DNA of 64,000 nucleotides from Sphingomonadaceae bacterium (GCA_025359445.1 JANYGB010000063.1:621-64620); one strand, 5' to 3'. Positions 1-14,838 are shown, counted from the stretch's first letter. Numbers and translations are program-made. The notes: generated by a model from the sequence alone, not told the origin.

Positions 1-2
1 AG

Positions 3-476
3 GAGCTCGATTACGACAAGCTCAGCCTTACGATCGAAACCGACGGCACGATCAGCCCCGAAGATGCCGTGGCCTATGCCGCGCGGATCCTGCAGGACCA
101 GCTGTCACTGTTCGTGCACTTCGAAGACGCGATGCCGGTGGGCGGTTCGCCGATGATCGGCATGGCCGCCGCGCCGAGCGAAGAAGGCGATACCAACCAG
201 CTCAACCGTTACCTGCTCAAGAAGGTCGACGAGCTCGAGCTGTCGGTGCGCAGCGCCAATTGCCTCAAGAACGACAACATCATCTACATCGGCGATCTGG
301 TCCAGAAGACCGAAGCCGAGATGCTGCGCACGCCCAACTTCGGCCGCAAGTCGCTTAACGAGATCAAGGAAGTGCTGTCCAGCATGGGTCTGCGCCTCGG
401 CATGGACATCCCCGGCTGGCCGCCCGAGAACATCGAAGAAATGGCCAAGAAGCTCGAGCAGGAACTGCTGGGTTAA
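3..476 (+). CDS. rpoA: RNA polymerase alpha subunit, C-terminal part (gene starts before the window)
   Basis: Alpha-CTD sequence [55 protein letters not shown]. Confidence 0.99.
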
Positions 477-541
477 AGACGCCATTTTCGGGGACAAGCT
501 ATTGCGTGTCCCCGCAAAATGTCTGCCCGACCAACAAACAC

Positions 542-572
542 AAAGGGCCGTCCCGCAAGGGGCGGCTCTTTT
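542..572 (+). terminator. Intrinsic terminator after rpoA
   Basis: Hairpin AAAGGGCCGTCCC-GCAA-GGGGCGGCTC followed by TTTT. Confidence 0.8.
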
Positions 573-596
573 CGTTGGCGCACCAACCTCAATGAT

Positions 597-735
597 CGTC
601 ATGCTGAACTTGTTTCAGCACCCATCGGGCCGCGCTCACGGAGCAAGCAAGCCGAAGCGTAACGGCACCGTTGCGCACCCCTTCTTACACTGGGTGAGCA
701 GGCGAAATGGGCCCTGAAACGAGTTCAGGGTGACG
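597..735. repeat. CGTC-tagged palindromic REP-like element, subfamily 2 (CTGAACTTGTTTCAG arms)
   Basis: Arms CGTCATGCTGAACTTGTTTCAG and CTGAAACGAGTTCAGGGTGACG; sister copy at 60434-60572. Confidence 0.85.
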
Positions 736-772
736 AAGTTGGATAAAGGTGCGCGGTAGAGCGAGACAATGA

Positions 773-791
773 TTTAACCAAATAGGTTAAA
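773..791. promoter_or_regulatory. Inverted repeat TTTAACC-N5-GGTTAAA (two CtrA-like half sites) abutting a -35 box
   Basis: Perfect 7-bp arms seen directly; the CtrA assignment is inference because the spacing is not canonical TTAA-N7-TTAA. Confidence 0.45.
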
Positions 792-795
792 AATA

Positions 796-824
796 TTGAC
801 ATCGTAACGCTATTGCGCTAAACG
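796..824 (+). promoter_or_regulatory. Sigma70-type promoter upstream of the terminase small subunit-like gene
   Basis: TTGACA-N17-TAAACG, with GCTAAAC resembling the alphaproteobacterial -10 element. Confidence 0.6.
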
Positions 825-874
825 CTCGAACTCTGGCGCAGTTCCCCTCCGCGCCCATATGTGAACCCCCAACC

Positions 875-1378
875 ATGCCCAAACCCACCCCCGCCGCCGC
901 GCCAGCGGAGGCCTCGATCCGCCGCGCGATCAACAACCAGACCAAGCTGATCCGCACCACCGGCAAGCGCTGGTCGGCGCGGGCAGAGGCAGCGTTCCTC
1001 GAAACGCTTGCCGCCACTGCCAATGTCTCCGCCGCGGCTGAGGCGGCGGGGTTCTCCACCACCGCGATCTACCGGCGGCGGCTCAACGATGCGCACTTCG
1101 CCGCGCGCTGGGCCGAGGCGATGGAGGTGGGCTACACCCGGCTCGAATGCCTGGCGATCGAAGCGGGCGCGGCGGCGCTGAGCGGGACCCCGCTTGGTGC
1201 CGGTAAGCCGCTCCCGCCCATGACCGCCGCCGACGTACTCAACCTGCTGCGGCTGCACCAGGCGGGGGTGCGCGGCGGACGAGCGCAGCGGTATGACTGG
1301 CGCAGGGCGGAGCCGGACATCGAGGATGTGCGCGCGGAGATACTGCGGCGGGTGGCGGTAATGGGGGGCAGCGCGTGA
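875..1378 (+). CDS. Terminase small subunit-like HTH protein (GTA/phage-like)
   Basis: Helical HTH-like core AFLETLAATANVSAAAEAAGFSTTAIYRRR..FAARWAEAMEVGYTRLE, typical of small proteins preceding large terminases in sphingomonads; same strand as the TerL at 4401. Confidence 0.6.
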   Translation: MPKPTPAAAPAEASIRRAINNQTKLIRTTGKRWSARAEAAFLETLAATANVSAAAEAAGFSTTAIYRRRLNDAHFAARWAEAMEVGYTRLECLAIEAGAAALSGTPLGAGKPLPPMTAADVLNLLRLHQAGVRGGRAQRYDWRRAEPDIEDVRAEILRRVAVMGGSA

Positions 1379-1522
1379 TTGTGAGTTGATGGATTCGCTC
1401 GACTAGCAAGCTTTGCGTCCCATCTTAGATGGTCGTGACTTCGGGTTTGCCCCCCAGTTCCCGACTGTCAGCTTTTGCGCGCTGGCGGCGACTTGTGATG
1501 TCGCCGCGTACCCTTGAAGCGT

Positions 1523-1996
1523 TTACGAAATTGTCGGCGATAGATGGGCGTGGCCGGTGTGGCTGTGATCATGTTTGTGCTCGTGCTGGTCACCGGGTTC
1601 TACGCCGACCAGATTCAGCATCACCGACCGTACTCCGCGTTCAGCGCGAACGCTGTCTGCAAACTGGTTGAGTGCCTTTGTCGTGCCCTTGAGCATGACT
1701 CCTTCCAGAGTGCTGCTGTGATCCAATTCGATGGATGTCGAGCAAGCGATCAAATCATGATGGGCGTGCTGCAAATCAGACAGCCGACTGGCGAGGCTGC
1801 GGACCCGGCGATCATAGATGTAAGACAAGTTGCCGACGCTGTATTTATGAACCGATTGAGCGCTGTTGAGACGGCTCATCGCCTCGCGCACTATGTCACG
1901 TATTCCCTCGGAGCGGCTTCGATAGCCGGTCGCGCCGAGGAACTCGTCCAGCGCCCCGGCTAAGGGATCATCGAGCGATATGGTAATTCGCGGCAT
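1523..1996 (-). CDS. nikR: NikR-family ribbon-helix-helix metalloregulator with atypical metal site and His-rich tail
   Basis: RITISLDD..GYRSRSEGIRD RHH domain, NikR C-terminal domain (QHAHHDL..LKG..FADSVRAERGVR), tail QHEHKHDHSHTGHAH; start set at ATG 1996. Confidence 0.85.
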   Translation of the reverse strand: MPRITISLDDPLAGALDEFLGATGYRSRSEGIRDIVREAMSRLNSAQSVHKYSVGNLSYIYDRRVRSLASRLSDLQHAHHDLIACSTSIELDHSSTLEGVMLKGTTKALNQFADSVRAERGVRSVMLNLVGVEPGDQHEHKHDHSHTGHAHLSPTIS

Positions 1997-2204
1997 TTGC
2001 GTTCGAGTCCTTCCTGCGCGGCCTTTGGTCAAGTTCATACAGCTGCCGAGGCCAAGCTCCAACTGAACTGCGCCTGATGCTGCCGAGGAAGCGCGACGGC
2101 GCGATTTCATAACTTAGTAAATATAATTATGCACCAAAGGCAACTTTTTCGAGCGCGCGGCGTATTTTGATTAGCCCCATCCGGTGAGGGCTAAGGAGCT
2201 GCTT

Positions 2205-4259
2205 ATGGGTAAATCCGTTTGGTCGTTGCCGTTGATCGCTTTGGCAACGCCAGCCTTCGCGCAGGAGCAGTTGCCGTCCCCGGAAAGCGAGCGGCCAGCG
2301 ATCATCGTCACTGGCTCGCGGATCAGCCAGCTTGGCGTTGCGGACAGCGCCAACGCTGGCGTTGTTACAACCGAACAACTTGCCGCCCGAACGGTCTATC
2401 GTCCCGGCGAACTGCTTGAGGTCACACCAGGGCTGATCGTCAGCCAGCACAGCGGCGAGGGCAAGGCCAACCAGTTCTATTTGCGCGGCTTCAACCTCGA
2501 TCACGGCACCGATCTGCGAACGACCGTCGACGGGATGCTGGTCAACCAACGCAGTCATAGCCACGGGCAGGGGTGGACCGATGTAAACTTCCTGATCCCT
2601 GAGCTTGCGGGCACGCTCGAATATCGCAAAGGCCCCTATTCAGCGCAGGACGGCGATTTTGCAGCTGCTGGTTCGGTGAGCGTAAACTACGTGAACACGC
2701 TCCCAGATACTCTGGTCAGTCTGGGGTTTGGCGAGAATGGCTATCGCCGGGCATTGATCGCGGGATCGCCAGCGGTAGCTGGAGGCCATCTGCTTTATGC
2801 GCTCGAGCTGTTTCACAACGATGGTCCGTTCACCAAAGGCGACAACTATCGCAAGATCAACGGAGTAGTGCGATATTCACACGGCTCGGCAGCGTCGGGC
2901 TTTAATATCACCGGAATGGCTTACGAAGCGAGCTACAATGCGACCGACCAGATCCCCAAGCGAACGGTGGACGCTGGCACGCTTGACCGGTTCAGTTCGA
3001 TCGACCCCACCGATGGGGGCAAAGTTCATCGCTACAGCCTGTCCGCCGCCTGGCATGGCACCACCGAGAACACGGCAACCAAGGTAAACGCTTACGTCAT
3101 CGATAACCGGCTCCGGATATACTCTAATTTCACGTACTTTCTCGACGACCCAGTCAACGGCGATCAGTTCGCTCAGCCCGATGACCGCACCAGTTTTGCG
3201 CTCAACGCAAGCCATGCGCGGCGCTTCACGCTGTTCGGCCGCCCCAGCGAAATCACATTCGGCATCCAGGGCCAAAGGGATGCGATCAGCAATGGCCTGC
3301 TGAATACCAGAGCGCGGCAAGAGCTCTCTGAAACCCGACGCGATCGCATCAGGGAAACCAGCGTCGGCGCGTATCTTGAAAATACGGTTCACTGGACGGA
3401 CACATTTCGAACGGTCGCGGGGCTGCGCGAGGATTACTACGAGTTCGATGTAAGAAGCTCTTTGGCCGCAAACTCCGGCAAGACGCACGCCGCACTGCTT
3501 AGCCCGAAACTGAGCCTGATTTTCGGGCCGTGGTCCAAGACCGAGTTTTACGTGAACGCTGGTGCCGGCTTTCACAGCAATGACGCGCGGGGCACTGTGA
3601 TCTCCGTCGATCCAAAAACCGGCGACCCCGCCGACCGCGTGCCTGGTCTGGTCCGGGCCAAGGGCGTCGAAGCCGGCATCCGCACCGAAATCGTGCCGCA
3701 CTTGCAAAGCACCTTGTCGGTTTATGGGCTCGATTTCGATTCCGAACTGATTTTTGCGGGCGATGCCGGAACCACATTTGCCGGGCGGCCAAGCAGAAGG
3801 GTCGGGATTGAGTTCTCGAATTACTACAAGCCCACGCACTGGCTCACCATAGACGCTGATCTTGCCTTCGCGCAGGCCAGGTTCCGCGACGCTGATCCAG
3901 TTGGTCGGCGCATACCGGGCGCGGTCGAAGGCGTGGCTTCAATCGCTCTGTCGGTTGCTGATCTGGGGCCTTACTTCGGTGCGCTGCAATTCCGCTATTT
4001 CGGGCCGCGTCCGCTGATCGAAGATAACAGCGTGCGATCGAAATCCACAGCAACGCTGAACGGCAGGTTAGGTTACAAGATAGGGCCGGGAACAACGATC
4101 GAGCTTGAGGGATTCAACTTGCTCGACGCGAAAAGCTCAGCAATTGACTATTACTATCAGTCGCGGCTGCCGAATGAGGGCCCGGACGGGCAGGATGACA
4201 TCCATTTTCACCCGATCGAATCCCGGTCAGTGCGCGTGAACCTGATCGCACATTTTTAG
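2205..4259 (+). CDS. TonB-dependent outer membrane receptor, probably for a divalent metal
   Basis: Signal peptide, IIVTGS TonB-box region, plug motif GKANQFYLRGFNLDHGTD, His motifs RSHSHGQG and DDIHFHP, C-terminal Phe; SD AAGGAG before ATG 2205; divergent from nikR. Confidence 0.92.
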   Translation: MGKSVWSLPLIALATPAFAQEQLPSPESERPAIIVTGSRISQLGVADSANAGVVTTEQLAARTVYRPGELLEVTPGLIVSQHSGEGKANQFYLRGFNLDHGTDLRTTVDGMLVNQRSHSHGQGWTDVNFLIPELAGTLEYRKGPYSAQDGDFAAAGSVSVNYVNTLPDTLVSLGFGENGYRRALIAGSPAVAGGHLLYALELFHNDGPFTKGDNYRKINGVVRYSHGSAASGFNITGMAYEASYNATDQIPKRTVDAGTLDRFSSIDPTDGGKVHRYSLSAAWHGTTENTATKVNAYVIDNRLRIYSNFTYFLDDPVNGDQFAQPDDRTSFALNASHARRFTLFGRPSEITFGIQGQRDAISNGLLNTRARQELSETRRDRIRETSVGAYLENTVHWTDTFRTVAGLREDYYEFDVRSSLAANSGKTHAALLSPKLSLIFGPWSKTEFYVNAGAGFHSNDARGTVISVDPKTGDPADRVPGLVRAKGVEAGIRTEIVPHLQSTLSVYGLDFDSELIFAGDAGTTFAGRPSRRVGIEFSNYYKPTHWLTIDADLAFAQARFRDADPVGRRIPGAVEGVASIALSVADLGPYFGALQFRYFGPRPLIEDNSVRSKSTATLNGRLGYKIGPGTTIELEGFNLLDAKSSAIDYYYQSRLPNEGPDGQDDIHFHPIESRSVRVNLIAHF

Positions 4260-4400
4260 GATCGCTTAGGTCGACGCACCCTCCCAGGATCGACATATCC
4301 CTTAGCTTGTGGGGGCATTCAGGGTGTCCGCAATCGGGTCGTTTCCGGACGGTCCGCTTGTTGCATTCCGACCGCGACTTCCCCCCATTAAAGAGAAAAA

Positions 4401-5915
4401 GTGCCCATCATCCCCGAAATTCTCCGCAGCGCCGATCCTGCGTTGCGGGAGAGGATTGTCAGGTTTTTGCCCGAGGCGCAGTTGCGGGCTTTGGCACGCA
4501 GCTTTCCCGAGTGGGCGCATCTGGGGCAGCTTCCGCCCGTCTCGATCCCCACCGGCGGTGACTGGCGGACCTGGGTGATCATGGCCGGGCGCGGGTTTGG
4601 CAAGACGCGGGCGGGGGCGGAGTGGGTTTTGGACTGCGTGCGGGCCCACGCCCAAACTCGTCACCCCGGCGCAGGCCGGGGCCCAGCACGGAAAAAATTG
4701 CCACGAAGCGACGCTTGTTTGTTTGGTCTGGGTCCCGGCCTGCGCCGGGATGACGTGAGGGCAGGGGTGGGGGCGATCGAGAAGGGCGCGACTGGCGCAA
4801 GCCCCCTCCGTCAGCGCTCCGCACTGCCACCTCCCCCAGTGGGGGAAGATCTGAGAATAGCGCTGGTCGCCGCCACTGCTGACGAAGCCCGCGCTGTCAT
4901 GGTGGAGGGGCCGAGCGGCATCCTGGCTTGCGCGGGGCCGAACGAGATTGCCGACTGGTTGCCTTCGCGCGGGCTGCTCAAATTTGCCTCGGGGGCGGAG
5001 GCTACGCTCTATTCGGGGGCCTCGCCCAATGCCTTGCGCGGGCCGCAGCATCATTTTGCCTGGTGCGACGAGCTGGCGAAGTGGCGGCATCCGCTGTCGA
5101 CGTGGGACATGCTCCAGTTCGGGCTGCGCTGCGGTCCGGCTCCACGCGCGCTGGTCACGACCACCCCGCGCGGGGGCTGTGCGGCGTTGGCGGAGATTTT
5201 GGCCGCGCCCGATACGGTGCAAACCGGCGGGGCGAGCTCGGCCAATCCGCATCTGCCGCCCGCATTCCTATCTGCGGTGACCGTGCGCTATGGCGGGACG
5301 CGGCTGGGGCGCGAGGAGCTGGATGGCGAGTTTCTGAGCGAGATTGCGGGATCGCTGTGGCCGCTGGCTTTGCTCGATGCGAGCCGGGGGCCGATGCCTG
5401 CACCGGAGACCTTGCGCCGGGTGGTGGTCGCGGTCGATCCGCCGGCCAGCGCGGCGGGGACGTGCGGGATCGTGGCCTGCGGGCTCGATGCGGGCGGCGT
5501 GGCGCATGTGCTGGCGGATTGCTCGGCGGAAGGCTTGTCGCCGGAGGGCTGGGCGCGCGCGGTCGCGGCGGCGGCGGAGGCGTGGCAAGCCGACCGGGTG
5601 GTGGCGGAGAAGAACCAGGGCGGCGACATGGTCCGCTCGGTGTTGCGTGCGGCCGGGCTGGTCTTGCCGCTGACGCTCGTCTCGGCAACGCGCAGCAAAG
5701 TGCGGCGGGCCGAGCCGGTGGCGGGGCTGTTCGAAAGCGGACGGGCGCGGCTGGCGGGGCGCTTTCCCGAACTGGAGACGCAGCTTTCCGGGTTGGTGGC
5801 GGGCGGGGATTATATGGGGCCGGGCAAGTCGCCCGACCGCGCCGATGCGATGGTCTGGGCGCTGCACGCGCTGATGTTCGCCGCGCGCGGGCCGGTACGG
5901 GTCTCCCGGCCGTGA
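4401..5915 (+). CDS. Terminase large subunit (Terminase_6/RcGTA g2-like DNA packaging ATPase-nuclease) with in-frame repeat insertion
   Basis: Walker A GRGFGKT, Walker B FAWCDE, coupling motif VTTTP, nuclease motifs VVAVDPP, AEKNQGG and SPDRADA are all intact. Confidence 0.93.
   Translation: MPIIPEILRSADPALRERIVRFLPEAQLRALARSFPEWAHLGQLPPVSIPTGGDWRTWVIMAGRGFGKTRAGAEWVLDCVRAHAQTRHPGAGRGPARKKLPRSDACLFGLGPGLRRDDVRAGVGAIEKGATGASPLRQRSALPPPPVGEDLRIALVAATADEARAVMVEGPSGILACAGPNEIADWLPSRGLLKFASGAEATLYSGASPNALRGPQHHFAWCDELAKWRHPLSTWDMLQFGLRCGPAPRALVTTTPRGGCAALAEILAAPDTVQTGGASSANPHLPPAFLSAVTVRYGGTRLGREELDGEFLSEIAGSLWPLALLDASRGPMPAPETLRRVVVAVDPPASAAGTCGIVACGLDAGGVAHVLADCSAEGLSPEGWARAVAAAAEAWQADRVVAEKNQGGDMVRSVLRAAGLVLPLTLVSATRSKVRRAEPVAGLFESGRARLAGRFPELETQLSGLVAGGDYMGPGKSPDRADAMVWALHALMFAARGPVRVSRP
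4659..4755. repeat. CGTC-tagged palindromic element, subfamily 1, inside the terL reading frame
   Basis: Arms CGTCACCCCGGCGCAGGCCGGGGCCCAG and CTGGGTCCCGGCCTGCGCCGGGATGACG, same arms as intergenic copies at 10306, 43665 and 50306. Confidence 0.92.
4802..4850. repeat. Second short palindromic repeat unit inside terL
   Basis: CCCCTCCGTCAGC..GCCACCTCCCCCAGTGGGGGAAGAT ending in a TCCCCC-AGT-GGGGGA hairpin like the other repeat hairpins in the window. Confidence 0.6.
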
Positions 5916-5922
5916 TCGCGGC

Positions 5923-5951
5923 TTGACATTGGCGGCGGAATCGCGTTGAGG
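5923..5951 (+). promoter_or_regulatory. Candidate independent promoter for rplQ
   Basis: Perfect TTGACA at 5923-5928; the -10 element is weak. Confidence 0.35.
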
Positions 5952-6031
5952 GCGGCGCTCTGGCGGCTGGCATTTTGCCCCGCCTGCTACGGGCTACCTG
6001 ATCCGGGCCCCTAACGAACGAGGACTGTATT

Positions 6032-6442
6032 ATGCGTCATAAAGTTGGCGGGCGTAAGCTCAATCGCACGACGTCTCACCGCAAGGCACTGTTTCGTAAC
6101 ATGGCCGCAGCACTGATCAAGCACGAGCAAATCACCACCACGCTGCCCAAGGCGCGCGAACTGCGCCCTTATGTCGAAAAGCTGATCACGCTGGCGAAGC
6201 ACGGCGGGCTGTCGAACCGCCGCCTGGCGCACGCCCGGCTGCTCGATGATGCGCAGCTGGTGAAGCTGTTCGATGTGCTGGCCGCGCGCTACGCCGACCG
6301 CGCCGGGGGCTATACCCGCGTGATCAAAGCCGGGATCCGCGCCGGTGACGCATCGCCGATGGCGGTGATCGAACTGGTCGAGCGCGATGTCGATGCCAAG
6401 GGCAAGGACTCGGGCCCGGTGTTCACCGCCGACGACGAATAA
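6032..6442 (+). CDS. rplQ: 50S ribosomal protein L17
   Basis: [52 protein letters not shown]. Confidence 0.99.
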
Positions 6443-6474
6443 TCCCTGGCATTCGTCGAACGACGAATTGCAAT

Positions 6475-6516
6475 GGCGGCGGCAGGTTCTACCCTGATCG
6501 CCGCCTTTTGCTTTTT
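6475..6516 (+). terminator. Intrinsic terminator after rplQ
   Basis: Hairpin GGCGGCGGCAGG..CCTGATCGCCGCC followed by TTTTGCTTTTT. Confidence 0.7.
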
Positions 6517-6528
6517 GGGGAGAATGCA

Positions 6529-8682
6529 GTGCAGCGCCGTGTCAAACTTCTGGTCGGTCTGGCTTTTGGCCTGTGCGCCGCCGCTGCCGCAGCCGAGACG
6601 ATGAAAGTGACTTACCCGCAAACCCGCCGCACTGATCTGGTCGAGCAGCAATTCGGTCAGGCCGTCGCCGATCCCTATCGCTGGCTCGAGAACGATGTGC
6701 GGACCGACCAAGAAGTTGCGGGCTGGGTGACGCGCGAGAACGCGGTGACGCAGGATTATCTCGGCTCGCTTGGCCAGCGCGCGTGGTTCGGCCAGCGGAT
6801 CAAGGCGCTGATGGATTATGAGCGGTTCGGGCTGCCGCACAAGGCGGGCAAGTTCTATTTCTACACGCGCAATTCAGGTCTGCAGAACCAGGCGCAGCTG
6901 TTTGTCCGCAGCGGGCTGGGCGGCGCGCCGCGGCTGCTGATCGATCCCAATCTGTGGGCCAAGGACGGCGCCACTGCACTCGACGGTTGGGAACCGTCGA
7001 AAAGTGGCAAGCTGCTGGCTTATGCGGTGCAGGACGGCGGGACCGACTGGCGGATCATTCGCCTGCTCGATAGCGAGACCGGCAAGGTGCTGCCCGACGA
7101 GATCAAGTGGGCAAAATTTAGCGGAATATCGTGGATCGGCGATACGGGCTTTGTCTATTCGCGCTTCCCCGTGCCGGCCAGCGGCCAGGCGTTCCAGCAG
7201 CTCAACAAGAACCAGGAAGTCCGCTTCCACCGCATCGGCACCCCCCAATCGGCGGATGAGCTGGTCTATGCAACGCCCGACAAGCCTGATCTGGGCCACG
7301 GCGCAGAGGTGACTCATGACGGTCGCTGGATGGTGATTACCTCAACCCAAGGCACCGATAGCCGCAATGCAGTGCACCTGATCCGGCTCGGCGGGCGCAA
7401 GGCCAATACCGATAAATGGGCGGCGAAGACCCTCGTGGCCGAGCTCGAAAACGACTGGCGGCTGATCGAGGGGATGGGCGACACGCTTTACTTCATGACC
7501 AACCAGGGTGCCCCCAGATTGAAGGTGGTTCGGGTCAATGTGGCGGCGACCAATCCGCAGTTCACCGACATCGTCCCCGAACGCGCTGAAACGCTCGAAC
7601 GTGCGCGGATTGTCGGCAACCGGCTGATCCTGTCGTACCTCAAGGATGCCGCCTCGACTGCCGAGACCATGTCGCTTGATGGCAAGCCAGTGGCGCACAT
7701 TGCCTTGAATGCGATCGGAACGGCATCGGGCTTTACCGGCGAGCCGGGCGATCCGGAGACGTTCTACAGTTTCACCAGTTTCAATCAGCCGAGTGCGATT
7801 TACCGCTATGATGCCGCCACCGGCCACAGCACACCTTTCGCGCAGCCGAAGCTGACCTTTGATCCCGCCAATTACGTGATCGAGCAAAGTTTTTACCCGT
7901 CGAAGGACGGCACCAAAATCCCGCTGTTCCTGGTCCGGCGCAAAGACGTTGCAGCGGTGAACAAGCCGGTACCCACGCTGCTCTATGGCTACGGCGGGTT
8001 CGACATTTCGCTCACCCCCGGGTTCTCGGCAACGCGGATGGCGTGGCTCGAGGCGGGCGGGGCCTTTGCCATGGCCAACCTGCGCGGCGGGGGTGAATAC
8101 GGCAAAGCGTGGCATGATGCCGGGCGGCTGAACAACAAGCAGAACGTGTTCGATGACTTCATCGCCGCGGGCGAATTCCTGATCGCGCAAGGGATCACCC
8201 CCAAGGGCGGTCTGGCAGTGCAGGGCGGTTCGAACGGCGGCTTGCTGATCGGCGCGGTGGTCAACCAGCGGCCCGATCTGTTCGCTGCGGCCAATGCGCA
8301 AGTCGGCGTGATGGACATGCTACGGTTCGACCGCTTCACCGCCGGACGTTATTGGGTGGATGATTACGGCTATCCCTCAAAAGAAGCCGACTGGAAGGTG
8401 TTGCGCGCCTATTCGCCGTACCACAACATCCGCAGCGGGGTGGCGTACCCGGCGCTGTTGGTGACCACGGCAGATACCGATGACCGCGTGGTCCCCGGGC
8501 ACAGCTTCAAATATACCGCCGCGCTGCAGGCCGCCGATCCCAGGGGCAAGCCGCACCTGATCCGCATCGAAACCCGCGCCGGGCACGGGGCAGGCAAGCC
8601 AACCGACAAGGTAGTGGCCGAGGGTGCCGACGTGCTCGCCTTCCTCGCGCAGTGGACCGGTCTCACAGTACCGGGGGTGTAG
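6529..8682 (+). CDS. Prolyl oligopeptidase (S9A), secreted
   Basis: Signal peptide, VADPYRWLE, catalytic GGSNGGL, DDRV and AGHGAGK; start set at GTG 6529 after GGGAGA. Confidence 0.96.
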   Translation: MQRRVKLLVGLAFGLCAAAAAAETMKVTYPQTRRTDLVEQQFGQAVADPYRWLENDVRTDQEVAGWVTRENAVTQDYLGSLGQRAWFGQRIKALMDYERFGLPHKAGKFYFYTRNSGLQNQAQLFVRSGLGGAPRLLIDPNLWAKDGATALDGWEPSKSGKLLAYAVQDGGTDWRIIRLLDSETGKVLPDEIKWAKFSGISWIGDTGFVYSRFPVPASGQAFQQLNKNQEVRFHRIGTPQSADELVYATPDKPDLGHGAEVTHDGRWMVITSTQGTDSRNAVHLIRLGGRKANTDKWAAKTLVAELENDWRLIEGMGDTLYFMTNQGAPRLKVVRVNVAATNPQFTDIVPERAETLERARIVGNRLILSYLKDAASTAETMSLDGKPVAHIALNAIGTASGFTGEPGDPETFYSFTSFNQPSAIYRYDAATGHSTPFAQPKLTFDPANYVIEQSFYPSKDGTKIPLFLVRRKDVAAVNKPVPTLLYGYGGFDISLTPGFSATRMAWLEAGGAFAMANLRGGGEYGKAWHDAGRLNNKQNVFDDFIAAGEFLIAQGITPKGGLAVQGGSNGGLLIGAVVNQRPDLFAAANAQVGVMDMLRFDRFTAGRYWVDDYGYPSKEADWKVLRAYSPYHNIRSGVAYPALLVTTADTDDRVVPGHSFKYTAALQAADPRGKPHLIRIETRAGHGAGKPTDKVVAEGADVLAFLAQWTGLTVPGV

Positions 8683-8703
8683 CCTGAGCCGGCTCATCGA
8701 TCC

Positions 8704-8775
8704 CCGTTCGCGGTGATGAGGCTCTGAGCTCTTGCGAAAGCCCGCAAGCGCTCTGTCGCTCCGCAGGACGAACGG
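8704..8775. repeat. Degenerate palindromic repeat (CCGTTCG..CGAACGG)
   Basis: Short inverted arms right after a stop codon; resembles the CTGAGCCTGTCGAAG family at 51703 and 58695. Confidence 0.45.
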
Positions 8776-9001
8776 AGTTGGGCTGAAATTGGTGCGGCGG
8801 TCAGCTGCGATCGAAAGCCTCCATCATTCAAGCGGTGCTAATGCGTAGTGGTTAGCCTCGATCCAAACCGGTGTGTTCAGAAAACAGCGCTTTTTCCTGA
8901 ACAAATACTGACAAGCCAGTTCAGCCTCGTGCCACCAGCGAATCGGTAGAAAGTCTTATCAAGCTCAGACACCATCGTTTGGGCAACTGAAGGACTTAAC
9001 C

Positions 9002-12781: not shown

Positions 12782-12903
12782 TCCATCACGCTCCCACGAA
12801 AATCCGGTATGTTCCGGGCTTGTTGCGGTGCAGCGTAACACACAGGGGATTGCCGTCAACAAGCGCCTTCCGCGCAGCGTCGCGGCCCTGTATCGCTACC
12901 AAT

Positions 12904-14838
12904 ATGACCCGCGCCGGCCGCCCCGATCAACCCAACGCCTCGGAACGCTTCCACGAGGACAAAGCGACTTACACCATGCAGGGCAGCCAGCCCGATCTGG
13001 CGGCGGGCGTGGCGGCAATCCGCGAGGTGCAGGAAACGCTGCGGCCCAAGCCCGGGGTGTATCGGATGCTCGATGCGCGCGGCGACGTGCTTTATGTCGG
13101 CAAGGCCCGCGCGCTCAAAAACCGCGTGGCGAATTACCTCCAGGTCGAGCGGCTGCCGCTGCGGCTCAAACGCATGGTCAGCCAGACGCGCGGCATGACC
13201 ATCGTCACCACCAACTCCGAGGCTGAGGCGCTGCTGCTGGAGGCGCAGCTGATCAAGCGCTTCCGCCCGCCGTACAACGTGCTGCTGCGTGATGACAAAA
13301 GCTTCCCGTTCATTCTGCTGCGCGCCGATCATGCCTTCCCGCGGATCAGCAAGCACCGCGGCGCGCGGCGGGCCAAGGGCAATTATTACGGCCCCTTCGC
13401 CAGCGCCGGATCGGTCAACACCACGATCAATGCCTTGCAGAAACTGTTCCTGCTGAGGAGCTGCACCGACAGCTTTTTCAGCCGCCGTGACCGGCCGTGC
13501 CTGCTTTACCAGATCAAGCGTTGCTCGGCCCCTTGCGTCGGACGGATCGACGAAGCGGGCTATGCCGAGCTGGTCGGTGAGGCGAAGGACTTCCTTGGCG
13601 GCAAGTCGTCCGATGTGCAGGCCAAGCTTAACGCGCAGATGGAGGCGGCAGCCAGCGCACTCGATTTTGAGACCGCGGCGATGCTGCGCGACCGGCTGCG
13701 CGCGGCGACCTTCATCCAGGGCAGTCAGGCGATCAACGCCGAGGGGCTGGGCAGCGCCGATATCTTCGCGGTGGCCTGCCGCAACGGGCAGTTCGGGATC
13801 CAGGCGTTCTTCATTCGCGGCGGGCAGAACTGGGGCCACCGCGCATTCTTCCCGAGCCACACCGATGGACTGAACGAGGAGGAAGTAATGACCAGCTTCC
13901 TCGCGCAGTTCTATGAGGAAGTCCCGCCGCCGCGCACGATCCTGCTCGACCGCAAATTGCCCGAGGCTGACTTGCTCGCCGAGGCACTGGCCGTAGCGGC
14001 GGGCGGCAAGGTCGAAATCCTCGTGCCCCAGCGCGGCGACCGGCTGCAACTGGTTCGGCAGGCGACGCGCAACGCGGTCGAGGCGCTCGAGCGGCGGCAG
14101 GCCGAGAGCGGGGCCAAGAGCAAGCTCAACCGCGAACTCGCCGAATTCCTCGAACTGACCGAACCGCCGGGCCGCATCGAGGTTTACGACAACAGCCATA
14201 TCCAGGGCACTGCGGCGCTGGGCGCGATGGTGGTCGCTGGGCCCGACGGGTTCATCAAGGGCCAGTACCGCAAGTGGAACATCAAGACCGCGCAGACCAA
14301 TGACGATTTCGCGATGATGCGCGAAGTGTTCGGGCGGCGGTTCGCGCGCGCGCAAGAGGAAGACCCTGACCGGGATAACGGAATGTGGCCCGATCTGGTC
14401 CTGATCGACGGCGGCAAGGGCCAGATGTCGGCGGTCAAGGACGCGCTCGAGGAACTGGGGATCGAGGACGTGTCGCTGATCGCCATCGCCAAGGGGCCGG
14501 GTCATGGCCGCGAGGGGCGCGAGGTGTTCCACTTTCCCGACGGGCGCGAAAAGATGCTCCCCGAAAATGCCCCGCTGCTGTTCCACCTTCAGCGCCTGCG
14601 CGACGAAGTCCACCGCTTCGCCATCGGCGCCCACCGCGACAAGCGCAGCCGCGCGATTACGGCGTCACCGCTCGACGAAATTCCCGGCATCGGCCCCGCG
14701 CGGAAACGCGCGATGCTGCTGCACTTCGGCACCGCGAGCAAAGTCCGCGCCGCGAGCCTGGAGGATTTGCAACACGCCCCGGGGGTAAGCGCGGCGGTGG
14801 CGCAGACGGTGTACGATTTTTATCATCCGGGCGGGTGA
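12904..14838 (+). CDS. uvrC: Excinuclease ABC subunit C
   Basis: GIY-YIG domain PGVYRM..LYVGKA, Cys cluster, RIEVYDNSH, LIDGGKGQ, C-terminal HhH; start set at ATG 12904. Confidence 0.98.
   Translation: MTRAGRPDQPNASERFHEDKATYTMQGSQPDLAAGVAAIREVQETLRPKPGVYRMLDARGDVLYVGKARALKNRVANYLQVERLPLRLKRMVSQTRGMTIVTTNSEAEALLLEAQLIKRFRPPYNVLLRDDKSFPFILLRADHAFPRISKHRGARRAKGNYYGPFASAGSVNTTINALQKLFLLRSCTDSFFSRRDRPCLLYQIKRCSAPCVGRIDEAGYAELVGEAKDFLGGKSSDVQAKLNAQMEAAASALDFETAAMLRDRLRAATFIQGSQAINAEGLGSADIFAVACRNGQFGIQAFFIRGGQNWGHRAFFPSHTDGLNEEEVMTSFLAQFYEEVPPPRTILLDRKLPEADLLAEALAVAAGGKVEILVPQRGDRLQLVRQATRNAVEALERRQAESGAKSKLNRELAEFLELTEPPGRIEVYDNSHIQGTAALGAMVVAGPDGFIKGQYRKWNIKTAQTNDDFAMMREVFGRRFARAQEEDPDRDNGMWPDLVLIDGGKGQMSAVKDALEELGIEDVSLIAIAKGPGHGREGREVFHFPDGREKMLPENAPLLFHLQRLRDEVHRFAIGAHRDKRSRAITASPLDEIPGIGPARKRAMLLHFGTASKVRAASLEDLQHAPGVSAAVAQTVYDFYHPGG

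Follow-up and report, generated by a model that had tools for sequence, protein, structure and literature searches.

A terminase gene pair between rpoA and rplQ in a Sphingomonadaceae bacterium: kinship with gene transfer agent terminases

Why would a bacterial chromosome keep DNA-packaging genes between rpoA and rplQ in a genome that has no capsid of its own to fill? The question arises from a 64,000-nt stretch of Sphingomonadaceae bacterium (GCA_025359445.1, JANYGB010000063.1:621-64620), which is called the window here and to whose whole length all coordinates refer, unless a contig or locus is named. Gene transfer agent (GTA) terminases are seen as part of one head-tail cluster, and stray genes resembling those of RcGTA, the GTA of Rhodobacter capsulatus, are usually dismissed as prophage debris. 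An earlier reading of the window (the original prediction) had placed a terminase pair between rpoA and rplQ. The pair is real: terS (875-1378) and terL (4401-5915) stand at the rpoA-rplQ junction, and profile matches confirmed both open reading frames (ORFs). Judged by its sequence relationships, it is one member of an old family of orphan terminase pairs of GTA descent, not phage scrap. The best explanation overall, to which we give a probability of about 0.45, is a vertically inherited paralogue of a GTA terminase that most likely packages DNA into capsids supplied in trans.

Origin and conservation of the pair

The two genes, and one peculiarity of the larger, are as follows.

875-1378, + strand: terS, small terminase subunit, 167 aa, matching phrog_4044 ('terminase small subunit')
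4401-5915, + strand: terL, large terminase subunit, 504 aa in a single open frame, matching Pfam Terminase_6N (E = 5.6e-15) and Terminase_6C (E = 5.7e-19)
4647-4850, + strand (about aa 83-150): in-frame repeat insert in the TerL ATPase domain, found by comparison with orthologues

The TerL motifs GRGFGKT (Walker A), AWCDE (Walker B), TTTP, VDPP, AEKNQGG and SPDRADA are invariant across 67 relatives, as are the nuclease residues D346, E403 and D482; D479 is nearly invariant. AlphaFold modelled the core with a predicted local distance difference test (pLDDT) score of about 90, and the best PDB folds returned by Foldseek were the D6E, T4 gp17 and Sf6 gp2 terminases, together with the G20c nuclease domain. 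On sequence and model, TerL is a Terminase_6N/6C protein (T4-like/headful type) with predicted ATPase and RNaseH-like nuclease domains.

Residues 20-86 of TerS match the N-terminal part of the phage TerS profile phrog_4044 (E = 3.8e-12), which bears out the terminase-small-like gene of the original prediction. This stretch is also conserved among the canonical terS genes of sphingomonad GTAs, and TerS is 37% identical to the terS product of the canonical GTA cluster in the congener G003. The terS orthologues that adjoin rplQ-linked terL genes (rplQ-type below) show 44-91% identity. A PDB sequence search with TerS found no solved homologue. Three more terS-like helix-turn-helix genes were seen in the genome (C43:115096-115887, C15:3674-4351 and C34:33347-34297), none with a TerL alongside; one of them lies near a GcrA-like gene and one near rpsL-rpsG.

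The main tree was built with IQ-TREE under LG+C20+F+G4 from 74 TerLs, six of them from phages, with RcGTA's own TerL left out. In this tree the rplQ-type TerLs form one clade (ultrafast bootstrap (UFboot) 100, Shimodaira-Hasegawa-like approximate likelihood ratio test (SH-aLRT) 97), which is present in 99% of bootstrap trees. The clade is nested in portal-linked TerLs of the same family, with successive nodes supported at 100/100, 99/95 and 98/95. Farther out lie TerLs of other families of the order, GTA TerLs of other alphaproteobacterial classes, and the six phage TerLs. The best phage TerLs are 33-45% identical to the window TerL, and the position of the latter among portal-linked GTA TerLs agrees with the earlier description of it as RcGTA-like. 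A FastTree of 175 sequences recovered a wider clade of 53 TerLs (support 99), none of which is portal-linked (0/53). According to the taxonomy of the source records, this clade spans Sphingomonadaceae, Erythrobacteraceae, Sphingomicrobiaceae, Sphingopyxidaceae and Sphingorhabdaceae.

Selection was estimated by maximum likelihood (GY+F3X4+G4, 16 sequences in each group). Omega was 0.078 for rplQ-type terL, 0.094 for congeneric canonical terL and 0.088 for the group of other orphans. Pairwise NG86 dN/dS values of close pairs were 0.10-0.26 for terL, matching those of the flanking rplQ (0.10-0.23) and S9 peptidase (0.12-0.29) genes, and 0.19-0.34 for terS. From Walker A through the C-terminus, terL runs in one frame in 53 of 54 orphan-clade loci. 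Purifying selection on the TerL protein is as strong as on bona fide GTA TerL.

The domesticated, stand-alone module that had been proposed is in keeping with the omega values of 0.078 against 0.094 and with synteny conserved across genera. Phage grouping combined with relaxed selection, named in advance as the mark of a prophage remnant, was not what we found: the phages fall outside the clade and omega is low. A companion rule, by which a genome without head-tail genes would reveal a decaying remnant, is half borne out. Such genes are indeed missing from the genome carrying the window (G000), but the selection data contradict decay.

Close TerL orthologues (78-90% identity) occur in 3 of 24 sampled congeners, always adjoining rplQ, and public protein and genome collections hold many more (62-93% identity). 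Wherever the context could be seen, a TerL with 65% identity or more has rplQ immediately downstream or close by; those of 61% identity or less are followed by a portal or are other orphans. Carriers of the rplQ-linked gene include Novosphingobium and Croceibacterium metagenome-assembled genomes (MAGs), Sphingobium xanthum, Ca. Andeanibacterium colombiense and, within Sphingomonas, S. psychrotolerans, S. kyeonggiensis, sp. IBVSS2 and sp. 7/4-4. The window itself probably belongs to Novosphingobium; G182, a species representative from its genus, is identical to a 'Novosphingobium sp.' MAG. The synteny comparison that the original prediction had suggested shows the rpoA ... rplQ-S9 flanks to be shared between genera. 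At one locus (L034, G004:C5), rpoA, the S9 peptidase gene and terL are each split into several frames; these are probably assembly indel errors and not pseudogenes.

The lineages of the orphan clade have fixed sites, among them the rpoA-rplQ interval, the DNA just downstream of rplQ and the neighbourhood of dnaG-rpoD. A stabilising effect of the ribosomal site, as proposed in the original prediction, is conceivable; sister orphan lineages are as stable next to dnaG-rpoD and at other sites as the rplQ-type, and rplQ has a conserved promoter-like element of its own right behind the terL stop. Neighbour clustering, filtered by GC content at third codon positions, found no conserved third partner gene across orphan sites, only terS and terL being common to them. 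The Allosphingosinicella-like genomes G580 (OY970297.1), G583, G592 and G584 (L133-L200) have 5-8 TerL matches each and one GTA capsid gene; the complete chromosome of G580 encodes about 7 full-length TerLs. One sub-lineage of these TerLs always adjoins dnaG-rpoD.

The original prediction had also called TerL intact. This holds for the one open frame and its motifs, but not for the ATPase domain, where about 67 residues are inserted just after the Walker A helix with the frame remaining open. The insert consists of two repeat elements and contains an inverted repeat with 28-nt arms (4659-4686 and 4728-4755); copies of the elements were found on other contigs of the genome. In the model it is a disordered loop that links the Walker A helix to the following strand, with pLDDT under 50 over residues 95-140. 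The orthologues of G004, Andeanibacterium and S. psychrotolerans lack it, and G008, G010 and several metagenomic relatives have different in-frame inserts at the same site. Inserts of more than 10 residues between Walker A and B are restricted to the rplQ-type, where they occur in 8 of 21 genes, all in frame and all of different lengths. An Rfam match to MIR168 on the palindromic repeat inside terL was rejected as spurious. In the public annotation (P0001) the gene begins downstream of the insert and yields a product of 382 aa. In practice, automated annotation shortens terL, and programs that look for GTAs would rate loci of this kind as remnants.

The resident GTA and its loss

The genome assembly comprises 2.96 Mb in 71 contigs and is 99.7% complete. 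A second, canonical terS-terL, missed in the earlier reading, lies on contig C30 (C30:31982-34734, locus L001); its TerL is 55% identical to the window TerL. The ORF after the C30 terL is an open fusion of portal residues 1 to about 133 with DUF2793 from residue about 16. In G003, portal and DUF2793 bracket the whole head-tail cluster of about 11 kb, which contains, by Pfam, Phage_portal, Peptidase_S78, Phage_capsid, Phage_tail_2, DUF2460, BR0599, Rcc01698_C and DUF2793. This portal-linked reference cluster is RcGTA-like. In the canonical terL on C30, a TAG replaces the conserved Trp of DWRTW.

No RcGTA-type portal, capsid or tail genes were found in the window or the rest of the genome, apart from the C30 remnant. 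Searches with 14 G003 head-tail proteins found no match beyond this remnant, and a genome profile search found no PF05065, no PF03354, and PF04860 in the C30 remnant only. The integrase family PF00589 has no match on the window's contig. The absence of integrase and virion genes from the 64 kb had been correctly noted. An assembly artefact was considered as the reason for the missing head-tail genes and rejected, as the deletion junction lies inside one contig and inside one open frame. With no capsid or head-tail genes and a TAG in the C30 terL, there is therefore no resident capsid, and the canonical terminase is decaying. As the head-tail genes have been deleted, the pair cannot serve a resident GTA in this genome. 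The proposal that it acts in trans with a head-tail cluster elsewhere thus fails here, the GTA locus being deleted from portal residue ~133 to DUF2793 residue ~16.

Orphan-bearing relatives differ in the state of their own GTA.

G004, G008, G010, G573, G575 and G590: a canonical TerL and, some 4-7 kb from it on the same contig, a capsid gene
G577 (Sphingomonas sp. IBVSS2): portal-to-tail genes present; only one TerL found, linked to rplQ
G000 and G182: no match for capsid or tail gene g13, nor for an intact portal; only the C30 remnant is left in G000
G574 and G581: no capsid and no g13 match; G574 has a 91-aa portal scrap, and the search of G581 covered capsid and g13 only
G211 and G576: scraps or tail genes only

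A short fourth TerL match in G008 was left unplaced. In IBVSS2, the 11.7 kb retrieved upstream of the portal (L201, G577:C1:226001-246000) contained no terS or terL, and the rplQ-linked TerL is on a different contig from the head-tail cluster. A search for a cluster lacking terS and terL, which the original prediction had recommended, thus came up empty in G000 and was answered by IBVSS2.

In the six genomes whose GTA is absent or degenerate (G000, G182, G574, G581, G211 and G576), every one has an intact orphan terL, whereas four have a deleted or broken canonical terL. Although the sample is small, the intact orphan gene in these genomes speaks for a function in which particles made by the cell itself are not required. 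GTA-less lineages do not have longer terminal branches than the sister lineages that bear a GTA (0.073 vs 0.066; 0.063 vs 0.045). As far as sequence comparison can tell, the selected function appears to be independent of a resident head-tail cluster.

Flanks, regulatory elements and cargo

The remaining features between and around the two genes are listed here.

3-476, + strand: 3' end of rpoA (Pfam RNA_pol_A_CTD, E = 4.6e-26), the upstream flank
542-577, + strand: terminator-like hairpin (542-571) and U-run after rpoA, found by folding
774-824, + strand: palindrome TTAACC-N5-GGTTAA (774-790), TTGACA (796-801), 17-nt spacer and TAAACG (819-824), upstream of terS, found by comparative conservation
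1523-2110, - strand: nikR (NF002815 NikR, E = 7e-39; Pfam NikR_C and RHH_1), GC 0.573
2184-4259, + strand: TonB-dependent receptor (Pfam Plug and TonB_dep_Rec_b-barrel), GC 0.586
5923-6031, + strand: promoter-like TTGACA element of rplQ and conserved leader, from an alignment of seven loci
6032-6442, + strand: rplQ (Pfam Ribosomal_L17, E = 2.6e-37), the downstream flank

Only terS, nikR, the TonB receptor gene and terL lie between rpoA and rplQ, and a gene for an S9 prolyl oligopeptidase follows rplQ. The terminase genes had been taken to adjoin; in fact, a 2.9-kb nikR/TonB-receptor insertion separates them. The ter genes have a GC content of 0.72 (terS 0.722) against 0.57-0.59 in the nikR/TonB cargo, and exceed both the mean (0.637) and the 99th percentile (0.694) of the long ORFs of the genome.

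The hairpin at 542-571 (dG -28.1 kcal/mol, z -4.2 against shuffled sequences) is followed by UUUUCGUU, and the two together look like an rpoA terminator, in line with the one first proposed. The spacer between rpoA and terS is rich in repeats and contains an inverted-repeat element at about 600-740 (GCTGAACTTGTTTCAGCACC ... CCCTGAAACGAGTTCAGGGTGACG), the right arm of which, GGGCCCTGAAACGAGTTCAGGGTGACGAA, recurs at the equivalent place in G182.

A promoter in front of terS had also been proposed. A strict sigma-70 promoter scan gave no site; terminator-like sites came out at chance level, and the hairpin at 542-571 was not listed. Support for the promoter comes instead from comparison: TTGACA-17-TAAACG (796-824) is conserved in four loci. 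The 774-824 region is retained in the window, G008, G182 and G004 while its flanks diverge (consensus TTGACA-17-TAAAC(G/A)), and the palindrome TTAACCAAATAGGTTAA adjoins the perfect TTGACA. The GGTTAA half of the palindrome resembles, on the other strand, what we take to be a CtrA half-site (TTAACC). By its conservation, this region would be a promoter-like regulatory region of terS.

On the other side of the pair, each of the seven aligned rplQ-type loci has an unchanged CTTGAC right behind the terL stop, even G008, where cargo stands between terL and rplQ; the element is absent where rpoA directly adjoins rplQ. The leader that follows, GGGCTACCTGAT(A/C)CGGGCCCC ... ACGAACGA, is present also where rpoA adjoins rplQ, and is therefore a possible L17 regulatory leader; it has no match in Rfam, and an Rfam scan of 1-9000 found no riboswitch and no r-protein leader. 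The conserved elements before terS and before rplQ suggest that the pair forms a module with the rpoA terminator on one side and a promoter dedicated to rplQ on the other.

The nikR and TonB-receptor cassette (1523-4259) probably serves nickel uptake and its regulation. Neither direct repeats flanking it nor a close plasmid source was found. In relatives the cargo is different.

G000 (window): nikR and TonB-dependent receptor, between terS and terL
G182: fused PARIS AriAB-like ATPase-Toprim protein (AriAB-like gene at L038 5829-7760) and DUF4403, between terS and terL
G008: DUF4440 and a 425-aa protein, between terS and terL
G008: PLD/DrmC-like protein and subtilase (L033 6238-9321), before rplQ
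G004: two unknown genes, between terS and terL
Ca. Andeanibacterium: RES-Xre toxin-antitoxin pair (L040 8215-9128), before terS

The spacers around the terS-terL pair are a hot spot for variable cargo. Cargo genes of the relatives match PADLOC-DB 2.0 (AriAB, E = 7e-34; DrmC-like; subtilase). Locus L033 (G008:C11) contains a 92%-identical, 273-nt direct repeat of the terS 3' end (12894-13166 and 13899-14171), which brackets an inserted DUF4440/SnoaL gene. This arrangement suggests that the cassette was gained by recombination with a diverged terS.

Possible functions and comparison with known systems

The explanation that we tentatively favour begins with a duplication of the terS-terL module inside the Sphingomonadaceae (in the broad, genome-based sense). 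The duplicated pair would have settled between the rpoA terminator and rplQ and would then have been inherited vertically. TerS would bind DNA through its helix-turn-helix-like N-terminal region and recruit TerL, which would cut the DNA and then pump it, driven by ATP, into portal-bearing procapsids supplied in trans. These procapsids may come from the resident GTA where there is one, as in IBVSS2, and from infecting phages where there is none, as in G000. The outcome would be packaging of host DNA, interference with phage packaging, or both. Both TerL domains and TerS are always kept, for which the simplest reading is that the ancestral activity (recognition, cutting and portal packaging) is under selection.

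Several points weigh against this explanation. One MAG (L123) has an N-terminally deleted copy of terL, and in the allele of the window the ATPase might suffer from the 67 residues inserted beside Walker A. For a packaging motor without a resident portal, we can only infer the substrate, and phage hijacking is inferred entirely. It would be unusual for defence genes to have a low omega and fixed synteny with housekeeping genes, and neither TerS nor TerL had a match in PADLOC-DB 2.0 at E <= 0.001. The contrast in terL loss between the canonical (4/6) and the orphan (0/6) genes comes from few, partly related genomes. Moreover, a GTA can be lost by a single deletion, which in G000 and G182 may be too recent for decay to have set in. 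Head genes were searched for with PF05065, PF04860, PF03354 and RcGTA-type proteins, and G000 could have a prophage with other head families.

The pair could instead be a second GTA terminase, alternative or back-up and perhaps initiating at its own locus, which serves resident RcGTA-like capsids, has recently been bereaved in G000, and will decay there. We regard this as possible, though on balance unlikely. It would fit the nesting of TerL in GTA TerLs with all motifs kept, the many terminase pairs per capsid gene in multi-copy genomes, and the head-tail cluster of IBVSS2, upstream of whose portal neither terS nor terL was found. The deletion in G000 also looks young, with the fusion ORF open and the canonical terS and terL lightly damaged. 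However, the orphan terL is intact in all six genomes with an absent or degenerate GTA, four of which have lost or broken the canonical terL, and GTA-less lineages show no rate acceleration. A GTA capsid gene is present in 14 of 18 further orphan-bearing genomes and in G004, G008, G010 and G573. This share (~70%) speaks for the alternative at first sight, but it equals that of genomes in the order with any TerL match (290/401), so that no dependence on the capsid gene is visible.

A rather doubtful idea is that orphan pairs are cis-acting packaging initiators. TerS would recognise a site at or near its own gene and headful packaging would start there, so that neighbouring DNA would be the cargo most exported. 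GTA capsids or hijacked phage capsids would be filled, much as in lateral transduction. Such initiation would explain the varied accessory and defence cassettes between and beside terS and terL in close relatives, the second terS 3' end of G008, and the 5-8 diverged TerL copies in genomes with one capsid gene. In a variant of the idea, the pairs would sabotage phage packaging as a means of defence.

TerS and TerL might also have been exapted, independently of any capsid or portal, as a DNA-binding factor and a translocase/nuclease for repair, recombination or restriction-like defence; this we consider distinctly improbable. The persistence of the pair without resident portals, the invariant nuclease and ATPase motifs, the hot-spot neighbourhood with defence-type cargo in relatives, and the expansion to 5-8 TerL matches in some genomes would all be compatible with it. 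An exapted nuclease would, however, be expected to shed parts, yet both domains and TerS are kept as packaging requires, and exaptation is further disfavoured by the missing PADLOC matches and the missing third partner gene. We know of no precedent for a TerL function that is independent of a portal.

A functionless, decaying prophage or GTA remnant, kept by chance or through an essential rplQ promoter at its 3' end, is strongly disfavoured and very improbable: small RcGTA-like clusters are treated as virus-like remnants in the literature (PMC5721377), no virion genes are found nearby or elsewhere in the genome, a repeat element lies inside terL, cargo splits the pair, a promoter-like element of rplQ adjoins the terL stop and one MAG has a truncated copy, but against this stand an omega of 0.078, a clade across several families with 53/54 frames open, eight inserts that are all in frame, a GC content (0.72) above the genome's 99th percentile and unlike that of typical small clusters, the lack of a contig integrase and a TerL that is not phage-like and has the phage TerLs outside its clade; moreover, promoter constraint would protect DNA and not amino acids, and sister orphans elsewhere are equally conserved.

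Returning to the favoured explanation of packaging in trans, we note what it would mean. A terS-terL lineage of GTA descent is constrained like a real GTA terminase, is fixed beside rpoA-rplQ or dnaG-rpoD, has multiplied in some lineages, and outlives the GTA. A literature search found no paper on a conserved orphan GTA terminase lineage or on a terminase at the rpoA-rplQ junction, and the published GTA TerL paper mentions neither paralogues nor Sphingomonadales. If the pair still packages DNA, the choice of the packaged DNA would be separated from the making of particles. This would offer a testable route to non-random gene transfer by GTAs or phages and to cassette exchange at defined chromosomal sites. 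A capsid-independent role, on the other hand, would to our knowledge be the first cellular exaptation of a viral terminase.

Among known systems, the closest comparison is with g1 and g2 of RcGTA. The pair resembles them in a TerL that falls within the portal-linked RcGTA-like clade, with Terminase_6N/6C and GRGFGKT ... SPDRADA, as well as in terS-terL gene order, elevated GC and low omega. It differs in having no portal, protease and capsid genes downstream and in persisting where the cluster is lost. RcGTA gp1 has been reported to have no DNA-binding domain (PMC6854486), and the absence of a DNA-binding domain at the N-terminus of GTA-type TerS is a hypothesis of Sherlock et al. (2019); unlike gp1, the TerS described here has a phage-TerS-like N-terminal region.

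With only terS and terL, the locus is also like the published small clusters or 'small elements', lying below both gene-count thresholds for a large cluster, which are nine or more RcGTA-like genes grouped with terL (Shakya et al., 2017; PMC5721377) or six or more (Esterman et al., 2021; PMC7947584). According to these descriptions, small clusters evolve faster, have virus-like GC and flanks that are not conserved, and often lie near integrases (PMC5721377, PMC7947584). The locus, in contrast, evolves as slowly as large-cluster TerLs, has a GC content above that of its host and no integrase on the contig, and keeps its flanks across genera.

The TerS of Staphylococcus aureus pathogenicity islands (SaPIs) and phage-inducible chromosomal islands (PICIs), and the TerS and TerL of capsid-forming PICIs, redirect the packaging of helper phages. 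A functional analogy is conceivable, as in both cases chromosomal terminase subunits would work with capsids encoded elsewhere. The orphan locus is unlike these satellites in lacking an integrase, replication module, repressor and att sites, in its fixed synteny, and in its descent from a GTA and not from a phage. That it is itself a phage satellite (PICI, capsid-forming PICI or P4-like) was considered and rejected, given the lack of integrase and replication genes and the fixed synteny in relatives. In split or multi-locus GTAs, such as RcGTA with its accessory loci and the Caulobacter GTA, genes outside the main cluster act in trans, and the terminase of IBVSS2 may be such a case. Unlike the outlying genes of split GTAs, the orphan pairs are additional paralogues: many genomes have them together with canonical terS-terL, and they remain where the latter is lost.

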